This document shows positions 52,849 through 59,595 of a stretch of DNA of 64,000 bases, piece after piece. The translations under genes and the position numbers were made by a program. The DNA lies in NCBI RefSeq assembly GCF_024521635.1, contig NW_026250404.1, positions 1,364,001-1,428,000 on the forward strand. The letters run 5' to 3'. Source of the stretch: Tricharina praecox (taxonomy: Eukaryota). Under the pieces are notes generated by a model. It saw only the letters and a program-made list of their open reading frames with translations. It searched no databases and had not been told where the DNA came from. Positions within the stretch are counted from its first letter, which is position 1; each line of letters begins with the position of its first letter.

Positions 52849-53843
52849 TTATCTCTTACCGGCCGCCCTTCTCCTGAGCTCAACGTCTCCCTCAGCCAGA
52901 GTGATGGCGGCCTTAACCATCTGCACAACGTTGATCCACTGCTTGGCGGCACAGATGGGTGCAGTGGCGATGGCAACAACCCAGGGCCATGTGTGGTTCT
53001 GGGCAAAGTCGGGGAAGCTCAATAGGTAGAGCGCGAGGAAGAACAGCTCATTAGCGGCGCAGAAGGTAAAAAGCACTTTCTGTACTAACTATCAGTATGG
53101 CCGATGCTACAAGAGGTTTCCCCGGGGTTGCATACGTTGTTAGAGTAGTAAAGGTTCAGAATTTTGCTGCGCTTCTTCTCGACTTTCTTGTGGGAAGCGG
53201 CTCCGGAATCCAGCGATGCATACCTATTCACCGGGGGTCTCCGTTAGCTACCTCGAGTTCCCAAGGCAAAACATCCGCCACGTGGAGTTTTTCGCGCATA
53301 ACGCCACCGTTGCCCCCCCTTGCCATCCAAACGCGATGCGAATAACACGCAAGCAGCAGAAACACAGACACACACACAAAAAAGGGATACAACGTACATA
53401 TGCATGTAGTGACTCGCCAGATCTAGCGAGATGAGCACCTGGAACAGGACGGCGTAATTGGTGTAAGCGGCACTCAGGAACACCAGCAAGCACGCAGTTG
53501 TACACCGATCCGTGACCATGTCCAGCACCGCGCCGAACTTTGTCGCCTGGTTGAACTTGCGCGCGGCCCATCCGTCCAGAGCATCCAGCAGACACGAAAG
53601 CGAGTATAGTATTGCGCAGTAGTTGGGATGGTACGACATGAAGTACAGCGATGCTCCAGCGAGCAAAACACGCGAGTATCCTATCCATCATCACTCCGTC
53701 AGTGCCGGAGCACGCGACACACACATCCGGGGGTGAGCAATACCGATCAGGTTTGGAATGAACAAAAAGATGTTTCCAGCATCAGCGTCAGAAATGGAGG
53801 CGGACTTTGGTCGGCCGTTCGCACTGGACTTTGAGGCAGCCAT
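52849..53843 (-). CDS. PIS1: CDP-diacylglycerol-inositol 3-phosphatidyltransferase, 4 exons
   Basis: NIFLFIPNLIGY; CDP-alcohol motif LDALDGWAARKFNQATKFGAVLDMVTDR; DLASHYMHMY; ANELFFLALYL. Confidence 0.96.
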
Positions 53844-56214
53844 AGTGTGGGAGGTTGTAGAGCGGAGGGGTTACGGTTGAGGTGGGGCGGGTTGTCGGTG
53901 AAGCGGTGAAGCGGAAGGTGTAGCGGTTAAGGGGTGCAAGAGCACAAGATAAGGACCGTTCTACTGGTACTATGGGGAGGTGCGTGTCGACGTGAGATGT
54001 TCGATGAGCGGTGAAGGGCGTAGCAATGGATGGATCCGACTAGAAACGAGCGTAACGGGTTCGATGTCGGAGTTGTGAGGGCAAAAAGTGGTTTTGAGAT
54101 TTTGTGGAGGGTTGGATGTGGGAGTGAACTGGGGAGGTGAGAGTTGGGTTTTGAGTTAGAAGGATGGTTGTTGGGCCGGGCGTTCTGGAGTGGAAACGAA
54201 CAAGACGCGGTAGGGATTCGGGGAGGGGGGCACAGCAGAATTGAGAAGTGGTACGTACGACACCAGGAATACCAAGTACCAACCGGACGTGAGTATTTGG
54301 TTACTGGTACCAGGTACCAAGTACCACGCCCTCACACGAAACGACCCGTGCGCACGGCCCGGGACATGGAACTACGCAGCTCCGAACGCCGCAGCGGAGC
54401 CCCGTAAGCGGCGAAAGGCTTTCGTACGCTAGGCTCTCGACAGTGGGTGTTGACGAATTCAAGCTGTTTTGAGGACGGCCCGAATCGAGCACCTGGCCGG
54501 GAGAAAGTGATCATTTCGTCATGCAGACCGGTTCCCGTTCTCTTCATCGTCCGGGCGTTGGAATGGCGGCTGCGTAACTACTATGGTACTTGTCCTGAGG
54601 ATCTTCCCGCCGTCCTCTTTCTCCCGAGGTTCCGCTCGGCTTGTTCGCGGTTTCGATCATCGATTCCTAACTACACGCAAACAGTCTGTACGTACCCGCG
54701 CGCGCGGAAAGCTAATGTCACGGCCTTTACCAGTCGAAATCAGTGGTTTCGACTCACCGAGCCAAAACCCGATGACCGACACCGGCACCGAGAAAGGCTC
54801 GTGAAAGGACCGACGGAGATGGGACGAAAGGAAAGGTCCAAATGAGGGAAACACAGCATCAGCACCACTTGGCGACACACCAGGGCTTTCTCTGGGCATG
54901 TTCAACGGCAGCTCATGAGAATCCTGGCGAACTCTCACGAACCTTCCCACAGTATCCTCTTAAAACTTTGTATGTGCCCAATGAGATACCTACACGAACA
55001 TGAGCTATAATGAAAGTTTCTGCATAAACTCTCTGCCTTTTCGTTGCACACATTCTTATATTAGGTGCCGTGAGAGCTTATGCTTATGACCACCGTTCCC
55101 TGGAGGGGGGCGCGAGTGCGATCGTGTGTATGGCTGTGGCACGCAAGTAGGAGATATCGCGGTATATGCCTTCAGTACTGCCCCTTATATGGACGATTGG
55201 ATTTCGGTGCCTGCCTTCTGTGTTTTAAACATTCGGGCTCTCTTTTGGTTGCTATGAAAGAAGCCGGAAGAGAAGCTCTCTTCCCTTGAGATTGGATGGT
55301 TTCGCGGCTACGGAGACTCACGCAGGAGCCAAATCGAAAAGCTATCACGACTTTCTTAAACAACAGAAGCCCATCCACCCTGTGGAGATTCCCTTTGTTT
55401 CGTTTGATCATTACATTCGACGTTATTAGATCATGGCAGTTACATGGCCGGTTCCATCCCAGGTACTTTCCTGCCCAATGTGAGTTCTCTAATATCTTCC
55501 GCCCGACCCTCCCTTTGATCGTACCAAGGAAGTACATGCAGAAAGGAAAAGAAAAGAAAAGAGGTCCGTCCCTCGCACCTATCCTCGCTACAAAGACATC
55601 CACGCTCCACATGATAGGCAACGCCGTAGCTGTCGAGTGAGAATTCCAGGCGGACAGTAACTTCTCTAGTGGTATCCACTGTGCGAGCATCACCACGGCA
55701 AGTGGCGCATAAGATCCCCAGTTCTCCACCAGTTGCGGTTGCCGGATCATCATTTGCTGCCAGACAGTTCGCCTCTGTCCGGTAGATTCTCGAGCACCAG
55801 TGCCAGTGACATTATTTTTCAAAAAAAGAATTGCAATGGAACATCACAACTCCAAAAAGCTCGAATGACCTATGGAAATTCGAGACGTTGATATCATTTT
55901 ACAAAAGCGTGGCGCAAAACTTCGCTTGTGTGTCAGTGTTACACTCCCGGTGACATTCACGCACGTTTAAAAGCAATCGACACCTCCGCTTTCAACCACA
56001 CCACACTCAGCGCCGGCATCATCCTCTCGAAGAGATATCGCCCCCCAACCCCACACCCACACCTATAAGCACCTTCCCTTCGTCTACCCAGCAAGCATCG
56101 CACGTCGAACCCTACCTACTCCCGCCGCCACCTAGTTCGCTGCACATCAAGCTCTCTGCTTCGAGCTTCATCCTCACACCTCGCCATCCCCGCCCATAAC
56201 TACAATCCGCAACG

Positions 56215-57240
56215 ATGAGTTCGCCTCGAAGGAGGATCGAGACAGATGTGAGAATTGCTTTGAATTCTGCTACGGGTGAGGGCGAATACTGACGGCGGAA
56301 TTAGGTCATGAAGTAGCGACACCGTCCTGATGCCCGGGTATAGAACCACGTGACTAACCTACGCATAGGCTGTAGGTGACCTATGCATGGAGAATTATGG
56401 GACTGTACTCAACTGTTTCGCAACTACAGGTTGATGAGTGACTATGAGGTTACCTTGGTGAATGATAATAGTCTGTACCCCACGGATTCCACAGCTCTTC
56501 CGACTTAGACGTGCTGACGTGCATGTACCCGCAGTGTACGACCTCTGCCAGCGCTGCCGCTGCCGCCGCTGCCTCTCCGGATACATTCGCTGATTTCTCT
56601 TTTCCACCAGGTCGGAGTTCTACGTCCGCTTCAAGGGTCCGGAAGAGAGTACGTATCCCCTGCGCCTGTCCTGATGGCTCGAAACCAACGTCTTCAAGCA
56701 CCCTTCAACGGCGGCACGTGGAAAGTCCACGTTGAGCTCCCAGACCAGTATCCCTACAAGTCACCATCCATAGGCTTTGTGAACCGCATCTTCCATCCCA
56801 ATATCGACGAGCTGTCAGTTCTCATCACCGCCTCTGTCGTAACTACCCACTTTTAACCTTTGGCAGAAGCGGTTCCGTATGTCTCGACGTCATCAATCAG
56901 ACTTGGTCGCCGATGTTCGATATGATCAATATATTTGAAGTGTTCCTTCCGCAGCTGTTACGGTATCCGAATCCGACGGATCCATTGAATGGCGAGGCCG
57001 CCGCACTGCTGATGCGGGAGCCGAAACACTACGAGGCGAAGGTTAAGGGTGGGACTTCCCTTCTCTCACGCTCTTCGGTGATCGGGACTGAGTGATGCAG
57101 AATACGTGGAGAAATACGCTACCAAGGATGCGATTGAGGACGGAGACGAAGGTTCTGACGATGAGGACGAGATGAGCTCTGTTGGTAGCTATGACGATGA
57201 CGATGAAGACGATGAACCGGCTGGGCAGATGGAGGTTTGA
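56215..57240 (+). CDS. UBC8: Ubiquitin-conjugating enzyme E2 (Ubc8/UBE2H), 9 exons including 8-, 3- and 1-nt micro-exons
   Basis: Exons 56215-56247, 56305-56312, 56369-56371, 56430-56470, 56535, 56611-56648, 56699-56813, 56867-57048 and 57101-57240 give [67 protein letters not shown].. plus an acidic tail. Confidence 0.95.
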
Positions 57241-57770
57241 TTGCTAATTGCTGAATTTCGGTTGGTTTCGATGTTACCCTGTAGTTTTTGCGCGCTGTTT
57301 TGGACCTTTGTTGTTGTTCTTTAATACACACATTTTTCCTTTTCCTTCTCGTTCGTGGTAGGGGTTTGATTGATGGTGTCGGTGCTGCTCCTTGTTGACG
57401 GACATGCTGATATGGTCTTCGCCACGCCTTCGTGATAGCCCGGAGATGAAGCTGATGTATAAAGATTGTTCTACTTCTACTTGCTTGTAGTCCAACTCTA
57501 GATGTGATAACGAGCCAGGCGGAGGGAAATTTCGCCTCCAGAAAGCTGTAGATGTCTCGACCCGTGGCCATTCCTATGGCTTGTCTGACCCAGCGGTGAT
57601 CTCCGGGCCGGGATGACCCAAATCAGGCAGCTACTCCACATACGCTAGTTGCTAGTAGTGGCAGAGCTCTTTACCGCATCTGCAGAACGCAACGTGTGCT
57701 TCAACAGCTTCAAAGTCCAGCACCTCATCTCGTCACCATTCCTCCTTCTCTCACTACGAATACACAAACC

Positions 57771-59345
57771 ATGAAGCAACGTACCACCTACCTCGTTTCC
57801 GACACTTTGGCCACGCACCCCGACAACTTCGACATCTCGCCCACAAGCCTACAGATCAAGTCCCTGCACGCCGCGCGCGAAGACCGTCTCGCGATCGGCT
57901 ACGACGAGCTTTCCGCCGAGATCCAGGACGTGCTGAAGCAATGCAACGAGCTCCTCATCCGCTGGTCTACTGGTAGGCCGTACACCAGCGTGGATCCGTT
58001 TGCCGCCCGAGTGCCGGCGGGCTTGCACATTCACCTGCGGCCGCAACGCGATGTTGTTCCGTATGTTTCCACCACGCGGGTGAAGGGGGGGGCGGCGATA
58101 TTGGTTGACTAACTGGAAGACCTATTTGCAGATCTATATGTGACACTGTGAACGTCGCGTTTGGCATCACCGACTGTCGTGGCTTCGCCGAGTCGTTTAT
58201 CCCCATCTCCGGCGTCGAGAACGCATACCAGTTCTACGCACCGGTGAGATCCATCGACATGTTCGCAACCTTCGTCGCAGATCATCTATGCACTGGTATG
58301 AATTCGTGGGAATGCGCGACTGGCGTCGAGTCCGCGGATTACGTGGACCTCAAGTGGGATGCTATCTCGCAGATGATCGTGGTCAACACGTTCTGGTCGA
58401 AGTCTGGGGAACCGCAGGGAGCGGTCGCAGTGAATGTCCAGGAACCGAGGAACATTGAGGTCGGTGTGCTGGGGAATGATAGACCTATAGCAGAAGAGAG
58501 CTTGACTATGGGGGGTGTTTTGCACGTGGTTGGAAAGGACGATAGAATGGGTATGTTATGGACGTCGCTTTCCCGATGAGGGGGTTTCGATGCTGACTGT
58601 GATAGAACCGGTCATGTTCACTTTCCCGGCACGACATCACAGCTCTCCAGCGACTTATAGCCTCACGACGTCGAAGCCACCTGGACTGCATCCGAAGCTA
58701 CAGCTTTCGATTGCGCATACCCAACCGCTCAAGGCACCAGGCGACGAGTGCACTCTAAATGCGTACTTCACCCTACCACGCGGACTCTTCATCGACAAAT
58801 ACCAGCTGTCACCAACGAACCCGCAGCTCCTTGAGTCCCTCAACATCAAGCGCATTCTCGGTGTTAATGGTGAAACAGATCTTGAGGCGCCGGTTTGGGC
58901 GAGTAAACGCTGGGGAAGCTCCTTGCTGGTAGAAGTGGACACCGCACGGGCCTCCAATGGGTTGGATATGGAGCTGCCACTGCATCTCCGGTACCTCGAG
59001 CCCAAGCATGACTCCACCTTATCGGAGGTGAACTTTACGATGCCGGCAGTGTTTTGGGCTTGCAGAAGCGAAGAGTGGAGTAAGATGGTAAGCAGCCCCT
59101 TCGATAGACTACACTTAGGGTGGGAACATCTATTCCCGGAGCAGACTATGTACTACCACCTCTCGCCATCCGAAGATGCATGGAAGTCAGTGCCGGTTCC
59201 AGTTCTGGACTTGCAGCAGGCGATGCTGGTCAAGATCGGGACTGTGGTTGTCATCGTGAGCGGCTTTTTGTGGGTTGTTTGGAAGACTTGTGCGGCGTTC
59301 ACTGGTGGAAAGAAGGTTGGGGCAGGGGAAAAGAAGACGCAATAG
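57771..59345 (+). CDS. PBN1: PIG-X/Pbn1 subunit of GPI mannosyltransferase I, 3 exons
   Basis: MKQRTTY start, RVPAGLHI, IEVGVL, GLHPKL, FIDKYQL, GETDLEAPVW, LPLHLRYL and a C-terminal TM helix with KKxx-like end (EKKTQ). Confidence 0.9.
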
Positions 59346-59595
59346 TTTACGTATCTAATGGACACGGCAGTTAATGAGGGGGGCTGGACGAATCAAGCTT
59401 GTTTTATGTAGATTCCGAGTTGTATTATCTATCATCTCGCTCCAGTCCCGGAACCTGATGATCAATCCGCGTCTCACGTGACTGTATCTTTAGCGGGGTT
59501 GACTCAACGAACCCCTCCATCCAGCAGCATTGAGTGTATAAGATACCGACCGACTGTGTCAACTCCTCACCAACTCCAATCTAAACCAAGCAACC

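Follow-up and report, generated by a model that had tools for sequence, protein, structure and literature searches.

Evidence for a one-base exon within a methionine codon of the Ubc8-type E2 gene in Tricharina praecox and related Pezizomycotina

The window analyzed here is a stretch of 64,000 nucleotides from Tricharina praecox (contig NW_026250404.1), and all positions are counted from its first letter. At 56215-57240 its plus strand carries a gene that, parsed with canonical GT-AG introns from the ATG at 56215, encodes a 186-residue E2 of the Ubc8/UBE2H type (Table 1). The nine exons measure 33, 8, 3, 41, 1, 38, 115, 182 and 140 nt in order and the eight introns 57, 56, 58, 64, 75, 50, 53 and 52 nt; five of these introns interrupt the first 126 coding bases. 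The 3' UTR runs on to about 57293-57297, as judged from RNA contigs.

Table 1. Exons and introns of UBC8 in the window
Feature	Position	Strand	Support and remarks
Exon 1, 33 nt coding from ATG	56215..56247	+	Transcript start further upstream: RNA contigs reach 56073 and 56107
Intron 1, 57 nt, GTGAGA..TACTGAC..TTAG	56248..56304	+	Gene parse and RNA contigs
Exon 2, 8-nt micro-exon	56305..56312	+	RNA contigs; conserved in relatives
Intron 2, 56 nt, GTAGCG..GACTAAC..ATAG	56313..56368	+	Gene parse
Exon 3, 3-nt micro-exon (GCT)	56369..56371	+	RNA contigs, gene parse, relatives
Intron 3, 58 nt, GTAGGT..ACAG	56372..56429	+	Gene parse and RNA contigs
Exon 4, 41 nt, last base A56470 of the split Met codon	56430..56470	+	Gene parse and RNA contigs
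Intron 4 (intron a), 64 nt, GTCTGT donor, GCAG acceptor	56471..56534	+	Gene parse
Exon 5, 1 nt (T), second base of the Met codon	56535..56535	+	RNA contigs X1 and X2; conserved AG-T-GT
Intron 5 (intron b), 75 nt, GTACGA donor, CCAG acceptor	56536..56610	+	Gene parse
Exon 6, 38 nt, first base G56611 of the Met codon	56611..56648	+	Gene parse and RNA contigs
Intron 6, 50 nt	56649..56698	+	RNA joint 56648->56699
Exon 7, 115 nt, UBC core as far as the HPN motif	56699..56813	+	Gene parse, RNA, Pfam
Intron 7, 53 nt	56814..56866	+	RNA joint 56813->56867 in X1, X2 and X3
Exon 8, 182 nt, UBC core including the catalytic Cys	56867..57048	+	Gene parse, RNA, Pfam
Intron 8, 52 nt	57049..57100	+	RNA joint 57047->57100 (cut +1)
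Exon 9, 140 nt coding, encodes the acidic tail; stop at 57238-57240	57101..57240	+	Gene parse and RNA

Introns a and b occupy phase 1 and phase 2 of one and the same Met codon, directly after ...VNDN. Each has its own GT donor, CTRAY-like motif and YAG acceptor as well as a workable length, and branch-site-like sequences (GCTGAC in intron a, GCTGAT in intron b) lie 21 nt from the respective 3' ends. Their lengths compare with 50-58 nt for the other six introns of the gene. Within the 140-nt span 56471-56610, the motif AG-T-GT is unique and sits at 56533-56537. A preliminary description of this locus had placed A56470, both introns, T56535 and G56611 in this way, and all of these statements hold on re-reading.

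The identity of the protein was established by profile and structure-based searches. The translations of exons 7 and 8 match Pfam PF00179 with 47.6 and 53.3 bits, respectively (cut-off 27). For searches with the joined protein, P0067, a stored protein 90.9% identical to the nine-exon translation (model A), served as a stand-in and scored 134.7 bits against PF00179. Among solved structures this stand-in is closest to human UBE2H (8pjn_2, E 6e-69) and to yeast Ubc8, the E2-24 kDa protein (8pmq_E, E 1e-68), with Rad6 and UbcH5 types at E about 1e-25 to 1e-27. At the split codon, yeast Ubc8 (8pmq_E) aligns to P0067 without a gap, Met on Met; human UBE2H has Leu at this position and is one residue shorter just before it. 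Model A contains the HPN motif and the catalytic Cys of the active site, and the C-terminal tail that follows ...KYATKD is rich in D and E, forming an acidic extension. The combination of the PF00179 core, the acidic tail and the closest solved relatives supports the earlier naming of the gene as UBC8. Ubc8/UBE2H works with the GID/CTLH ligase in yeast and human.

Six ways of reading the span between exons 4 and 6 were compared. Model A, in which T56535 is included, yields the open 186-residue protein. Removal of 56471-56610 as one intron (model C) shifts the frame, as the preliminary description had stated, and retention of either or both introns (models D-F) leads to early stops; every mis-splicing outcome modeled (C-F) thus ends in a premature stop. 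The premature-stop peptide previously quoted for a retained second intron was reproduced exactly. Model B, which joins a cryptic donor GT at 56475 to the acceptor at 56610, is in frame and open and is one residue longer (...NDN-S-L-S-EF...). One detail of the preliminary description was therefore wrong, since the split codon A/T/G is not the sole in-frame solution. The RNA contigs do not use this cryptic site.

RNA evidence was sought in public sequencing runs. The run index returned five runs, whose RNA nature is the index's guess ('RNA?'). Two of them, X1 and X2, come from two studies with two organism labels, and about 0.4 of the sampled words were present in each, about the share expected if exons and UTRs alone are present. 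When the runs were placed on 56000-57500, a 762-nt contig of X1 was found to span 56073-57297 in spliced form and a 722-nt contig of X2 to span 56107-57293, likewise spliced, both with 0 other letters. The spliced form of these contigs speaks for RNA. In both, 56470 is joined to 56611 with 140 nt skipped, the skipped segment ends in GT..AG, and one letter T is inserted at the joint. This T is contiguous with neither flanking exon in the genome. A single intron leaving a T at the junction is impossible because 56471 and 56610 are both G, and T56535 is taken as the source of the extra letter because it stands in the sole AG-T-GT of the span and because this motif is conserved. The cDNA junction that had been predicted, exon 4 followed by T and exon 6, is thus the one seen in both contigs, which match exactly otherwise. 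The X1 and X2 evidence consists of assembled contigs from which rare variants drop out, so constitutive inclusion cannot be read from them. Likewise, no contig over 56510-56560 that would represent half-spliced or intron-retaining RNA was found in four runs, within the limits of contigs that drop rare forms.

Two soil metatranscriptomes contain small shares of the sampled words. The contig of X3 covers 56767-57009 with 0 other letters and that of X4 covers 56041-56243 with 1 other letter, both ending short of the junction. Such near-identical pieces of UBC8 transcript indicate that the organism or a very close relative is active in the sampled material. Another contig of X1, 3213 nt long, reaches into the 3' UTR region at 57258-57354, with loose ends at 57258 and 57334 and matches on both strands; it may represent a neighboring or convergent transcript or a low-complexity match.

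To place the arrangement in a comparative context, metagenome contigs were scanned with the exon 8 peptide. Of 387 confirmed matches, the 80 best were retained, and both flanking exons are present in 75 of these (L015, L055, L057, L061 and L072 were left out). The order A-intron-T-intron-G occurs in 55 of the 75 loci. One locus alone, L005, has intron a followed directly by TG (L005:2163-2215), as would result from an exact deletion of intron b. It could have been a splicing intermediate; this was rejected as its 10.9-kb contig retains other introns, and it is read as a genome lacking intron b. No locus with intron b alone was found among the 75. Introns a and b are both absent, with downstream introns kept, from seven loci (L034, L037, L040, L053, L063, L065 and L066), three of which sit on contigs of 70-229 kb. 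In the remaining 12, which are fully spliced, the codon is ATG and the next one CAA, CAG or CGC. In L034, L037, L053 and L063 all five N-terminal introns are gone together and the downstream introns are kept, a pattern suggesting that a spliced copy has taken the place of the 5' portion of the gene.

The 55 two-intron loci and the window reduce to 45 distinct two-intron spacers (44 from metagenomes plus the window). All 45, drawn from the best 80 of 387 matches and the window, have AG-T-GT near the middle, no closer than 40 nt to either end. Shuffling the spacers yields the motif with the same placement at a rate that averages 3.2% per sequence and never exceeds 7.4%; the 45 spacers come from phylogenetically related loci and are not 45 independent trials. 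Among these same spacers, AG-A-GT occurs once in the central zone and AG-C-GT and AG-G-GT never. At position -3 before the T, 27 spacers have C and 17 have T, so that 44 of 45 carry a pyrimidine there. Intron b has G at +5 in 43 of 45, and the remaining positions around the T vary freely. The conserved YAG-T-GT that the preliminary description had proposed to look for in UBC8 loci of other Pezizomycotina was accordingly found, with the pyrimidine exception just given. The G at +5 is missing in two spacers, among them that of the Tuber-like L038, whose intron b donor is GTAACA.

The introns themselves are far more variable. Within the same set, intron a measures 46-87 nt (median 60) and intron b 50-86 nt (median 63), and the spacers form 32 clusters at <70% shared identity. 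The median identity between clusters is 0.59, a value assumed to be near background for the scoring used. A YTNAY motif is found 6-40 nt before the 3' end of all 45 introns a and all 45 introns b. The strict form YTRAY is absent from several introns b and only the looser motif is found in all, hence this is weak evidence for a branch site. Across these spacers the splice letters (YAG-T-GTNNG) are held fixed, with the introns essentially unalignable.

Among the relatives, two pairings of cDNA-like and genomic loci provide a second view of the spliced product. L003, compared with genomic L013 and L014, and L026, compared with genomic L038, are identical to them in flanking exon sequence over 36/36 nt before the codon. 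After the codon the identities are 34/36 and 33/36, with the final two positions lying past the exon end. The cDNA-like loci read ATG where the matching genomic loci have A...T...G. Because all eight introns are absent from these short contigs, they probably derive from transcripts.

The one-base exon is accompanied by two other very small exons. In the X1 and X2 contigs nine letters lie between 56249 and 56430, and together with two bases that the aligner put at 56248-56249 they make up the 8 + 3 nt of exons 2 and 3. In the relatives, an isolated 8-nt exon (GTNATG plus two bases) stands between AG and GT in 38 of 59 distinct upstream spacers, and inspection by eye shows a 3-nt exon (GAT, GCT or ATT) after it. 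The two are fused as an 11-nt exon in six distinct spacers (L025, L039, L043, L044, L064 and L067), and L029 has exon 1 and the 8-nt exon as one. Four of the 59 have a single intron here, and ten have a 15-nt stretch with no intron. The neighboring micro-exons are old as well.

The taxonomic distribution was then used to estimate the age of the arrangement. Metagenome loci were labeled by the best match of their C-terminal half, about 105-130 residues, to 44 named proteins. The window itself matches Trichophaea/Wilcoxina at 96/106, and L001, L010, L018 and L021 are also nearest to these Pyronemataceae. Tuber indicum is matched by L038 (104/104) and L026 (111/111), Cenococcum geophilum by L023 (106/106), a Mollisiaceae species by L013 and L014 (105/106) and Alternaria by L052 (104/106). 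Firm labels are limited to L023, L038, L026, L013, L014, L003 and L052, and the Sordariomycetes-like and Lecanoromycetes-like labels rest on weaker matches. According to the NCBI taxonomy, the nearest named relatives that were looked up fall in Pezizomycetes, Dothideomycetes and Leotiomycetes; Pezizomycetes lie outside the leotiomyceta clade, which contains the other two. By parsimony, the one-base-exon arrangement would be older than the split between Pezizomycetes and leotiomyceta. If it does predate that split, L005 and the seven loci without introns a and b represent later losses, in which intron b alone, or all N-terminal introns together, would have disappeared in some lineages. As to how two introns came to lie in one codon, separate gains are possible, as is the rescue scenario proposed for Fusarium in PMC12940212. 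A one-base exon can evidently persist across several fungal classes, beside exons of 3 and 8 nt.

The arrangement has left its mark on annotated proteins. Among the 120 best protein hits to exon 8, 40 are named as Pezizomycotina species, and ...NDN-M-[QS]-EF... is intact in only two of these 40 (P0037 and P0094). The other 38 named models, within P0019-P0120, are wrong at or around the split Met codon. In some, translation continues into intron a (NDN-S...); others remove intron a and then run on into intron b (NDN-M-Y...), and others again skip exon 6 (NDN-TPF...). A recurring class uses a cryptic GT four bases into the donor and gains one extra residue (NDN-SK-Q, NDN-ST-Q, NDN-SE-Q). This error arises because the usual donor GTNNGT has a second GT at +5, and adding four bases while losing the T brings the reading back into frame. 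Errors of this kind in UBC8 models spread into protein databases, alignments and structure predictions.

The same cryptic donor is the basis of one competing explanation for the window, in which there is only one intron, running from the GT at 56475, four bases downstream of the donor, to the acceptor at 56610, and the protein is one residue longer. Its frame is open, the GTNNGT pattern always offers a second GT, and the solution appears in many deposited models of relatives. Both RNA contigs, however, join at 56470 with the T and not at 56474, GTACCC is a poor donor, the alignment of yeast Ubc8 with the proxy protein is gapless here, and the cDNA-like loci of relatives read ATG. A single cryptic-donor intron is thus very improbable, even though its product could occur as a minor isoform. 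Another explanation holds that the assembly is in error and that a real T stands beside an exon boundary, flanked by a single 140-nt intron. A one-base deletion in the deposited assembly would mimic the discrepancy between RNA and DNA. Against this, independently assembled metagenomes supply 44 further distinct spacers with the layout A/GT...AG-T-GT...AG/G; among them is the L001 spacer, which is 80% identical to that of the window, and both halves of the span resemble complete introns of normal size for UBC8. An assembly error is accordingly given hardly any weight. It is very likely that T56535 is a genuine one-base exon in the recovered mature RNA and that the Met codon is split, as A, T and G, by two ordinary short spliceosomal introns. 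This agrees with the central claim of the preliminary description, that this base completes a Met codon of a Ubc8-type E2, and the claim is now carried by the RNA contigs and by 45 of 45 distinct two-intron spacers.

Short fungal introns are usually recognized by intron definition. Intron a (64 nt) and intron b (75 nt) would then each be recognized as a self-contained unit. Only 1 nt separates the acceptor of intron a from the donor of intron b, and the branch site of intron a is about 21 nt away from that donor. Given what is known of splicing, two spliceosomes could probably not occupy both introns at once, so that stepwise removal is expected, a reasonable deduction that the preliminary description had also made. 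If splicing follows transcription, the upstream intron a is the likelier to be removed first; either order would give an identical product. After the first removal the T would be the end base of a normal-sized exon, and the second removal would be ordinary. The process would amount to a recursive type of splicing that leaves one base behind. At recursive splice sites proper (AG/GT ratchet points), which belong to very long introns, no base is left. The likeness lies in two adjoining segments that are probably removed stepwise, with the second 5' splice site at the first 3' splice site; the difference is that in UBC8 the T is retained between AG and GT and both introns are short. A recursive splice site, with its zero-length exon, was for this reason rejected, given that the T between AG and GT stays in the RNA.

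The base itself is fixed because the codon must be ATG. Skipping of the T or retention of an intron gives a premature stop, so that such errors would yield no E2. A more elaborate possibility is that the one-base exon is real and its inclusion regulated, with inefficient or conditional splicing feeding nonsense-mediated decay and setting the Ubc8 level, the 'switch' suggested in the preliminary description. This would fit the premature stops of all mis-splicing outcomes (models C-F) and the weak and varied donors of intron b. However, no unspliced, half-spliced or skipped form is among the recovered contigs, which drop rare forms, a premature stop after mis-splicing is true for most introns, and the need for the Met codon alone explains the conservation. 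Regulated inclusion is therefore considered unlikely. A still broader proposal, and a slightly less likely one, is that the run of 8-, 3- and 1-nt exons is an ancient splicing unit of obligatory order, kept both for the Met codon and as a slow, error-prone gate on Ubc8, hence on GID/CTLH activity, with mis-spliced forms sent to nonsense-mediated decay. UBC8 offers a natural substrate, in genetically tractable fungi, on which to study how the spliceosome deals with an exon that is too short to be held or defined.

One-base exons have been described before, and the view that they are extremely rare is out of date: they are reported in plant APC11 and VPS55 (PMC8831610), in 13 Coprinopsis cinerea genes (PMC12230235) and in Fusarium CYP621A (PMC12940212). 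For Arabidopsis APC11 there is mutational proof, a changed base being carried into the mRNA (PMC4674806), and the APC11 and VPS55 one-base exons occur across land plants (PMC8831610). UBC8 resembles APC11 in having one base between AG and GT, flanked by two introns, unannotated and needed for the frame, and in being kept across a large clade with the introns lost in some lineages (PMC4674806, PMC8831610). The discovery was also alike, through an extra cDNA base contiguous with neither exon (PMC4674806). Unlike UBC8, APC11 is a plant gene, its base is an A, and this base lies at position 333 of an annotated Arabidopsis intron of 422 nt (PMC4674806); unlike APC11, with its mutational proof, the UBC8 case is known from sequence and RNA contigs. 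In VPS55, too, a one-base exon and the splice sites around it are conserved; its base, unlike that of UBC8, is alternatively included in some plants, giving two protein forms (PMC8831610). No alternative inclusion of the kind described for VPS55 was seen for the UBC8 T in the recovered contigs, which drop rare forms.

The closest fungal parallel is CYP621A of Fusarium, which its paper presents as the first fungal one-base exon and the second in any organism (PMC12940212). Like UBC8, it is a nuclear gene of Pezizomycotina in which the middle base of a conserved codon stands as AG-N-GT, with support from public RNA (reads in that case) and gene models that miss the base. It differs in its base, a G (AGGGT), in being described from one genus and in encoding a P450 of unknown function (PMC12940212), whereas UBC8 is a housekeeping E2 gene with the arrangement in several Pezizomycotina classes. 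The long-read annotation of Coprinopsis cinerea lists 13 one-base exons in 13 genes (PMC12230235). These are likewise one-base internal exons in a fungus, transcript-backed, whose omission breaks gene models; the host, unlike that of UBC8, is a basidiomycete (PMC12230235). With 13 cases listed there already, the 'first fungal' claim for Fusarium understates the spread and age of such exons (PMC12940212, PMC12230235). Stwintrons, in which one intron lies inside a splice signal of another and both are excised without residue (PMC5587772), were also weighed. Those of Pezizomycotina (PMC5587772) are likewise complex intervening sequences, spliced in steps as is probable for UBC8, and introns separated by one nt are a theme of their evolution too; the assignment was rejected as introns a and b are both complete and independent and the T between them is kept. 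In the literature searched, which includes few subscription journals, no report of a one-base exon in UBC8 was found, nor any paper on Ubc8 together with a microexon. The UBC8 one-base exon appears to be a new and unusually old case among those already described.

The surroundings of the gene were also inspected. An Rfam scan of 54000-59000 at E <= 0.1 returned no RNA family, which indicates that no snoRNA or similar element lies in the UBC8 introns. No convincing gene antisense to UBC8 was found among the stop-to-stop ORFs of 53500-59500. A minus-strand ORF is present at 57119-57622. Further upstream, an open frame on the minus strand at 53244-53687 carries the pattern D-G-x2-A-R...G-x3-D-x3-D, which we take to resemble that of CDP-alcohol phosphatidyltransferases.
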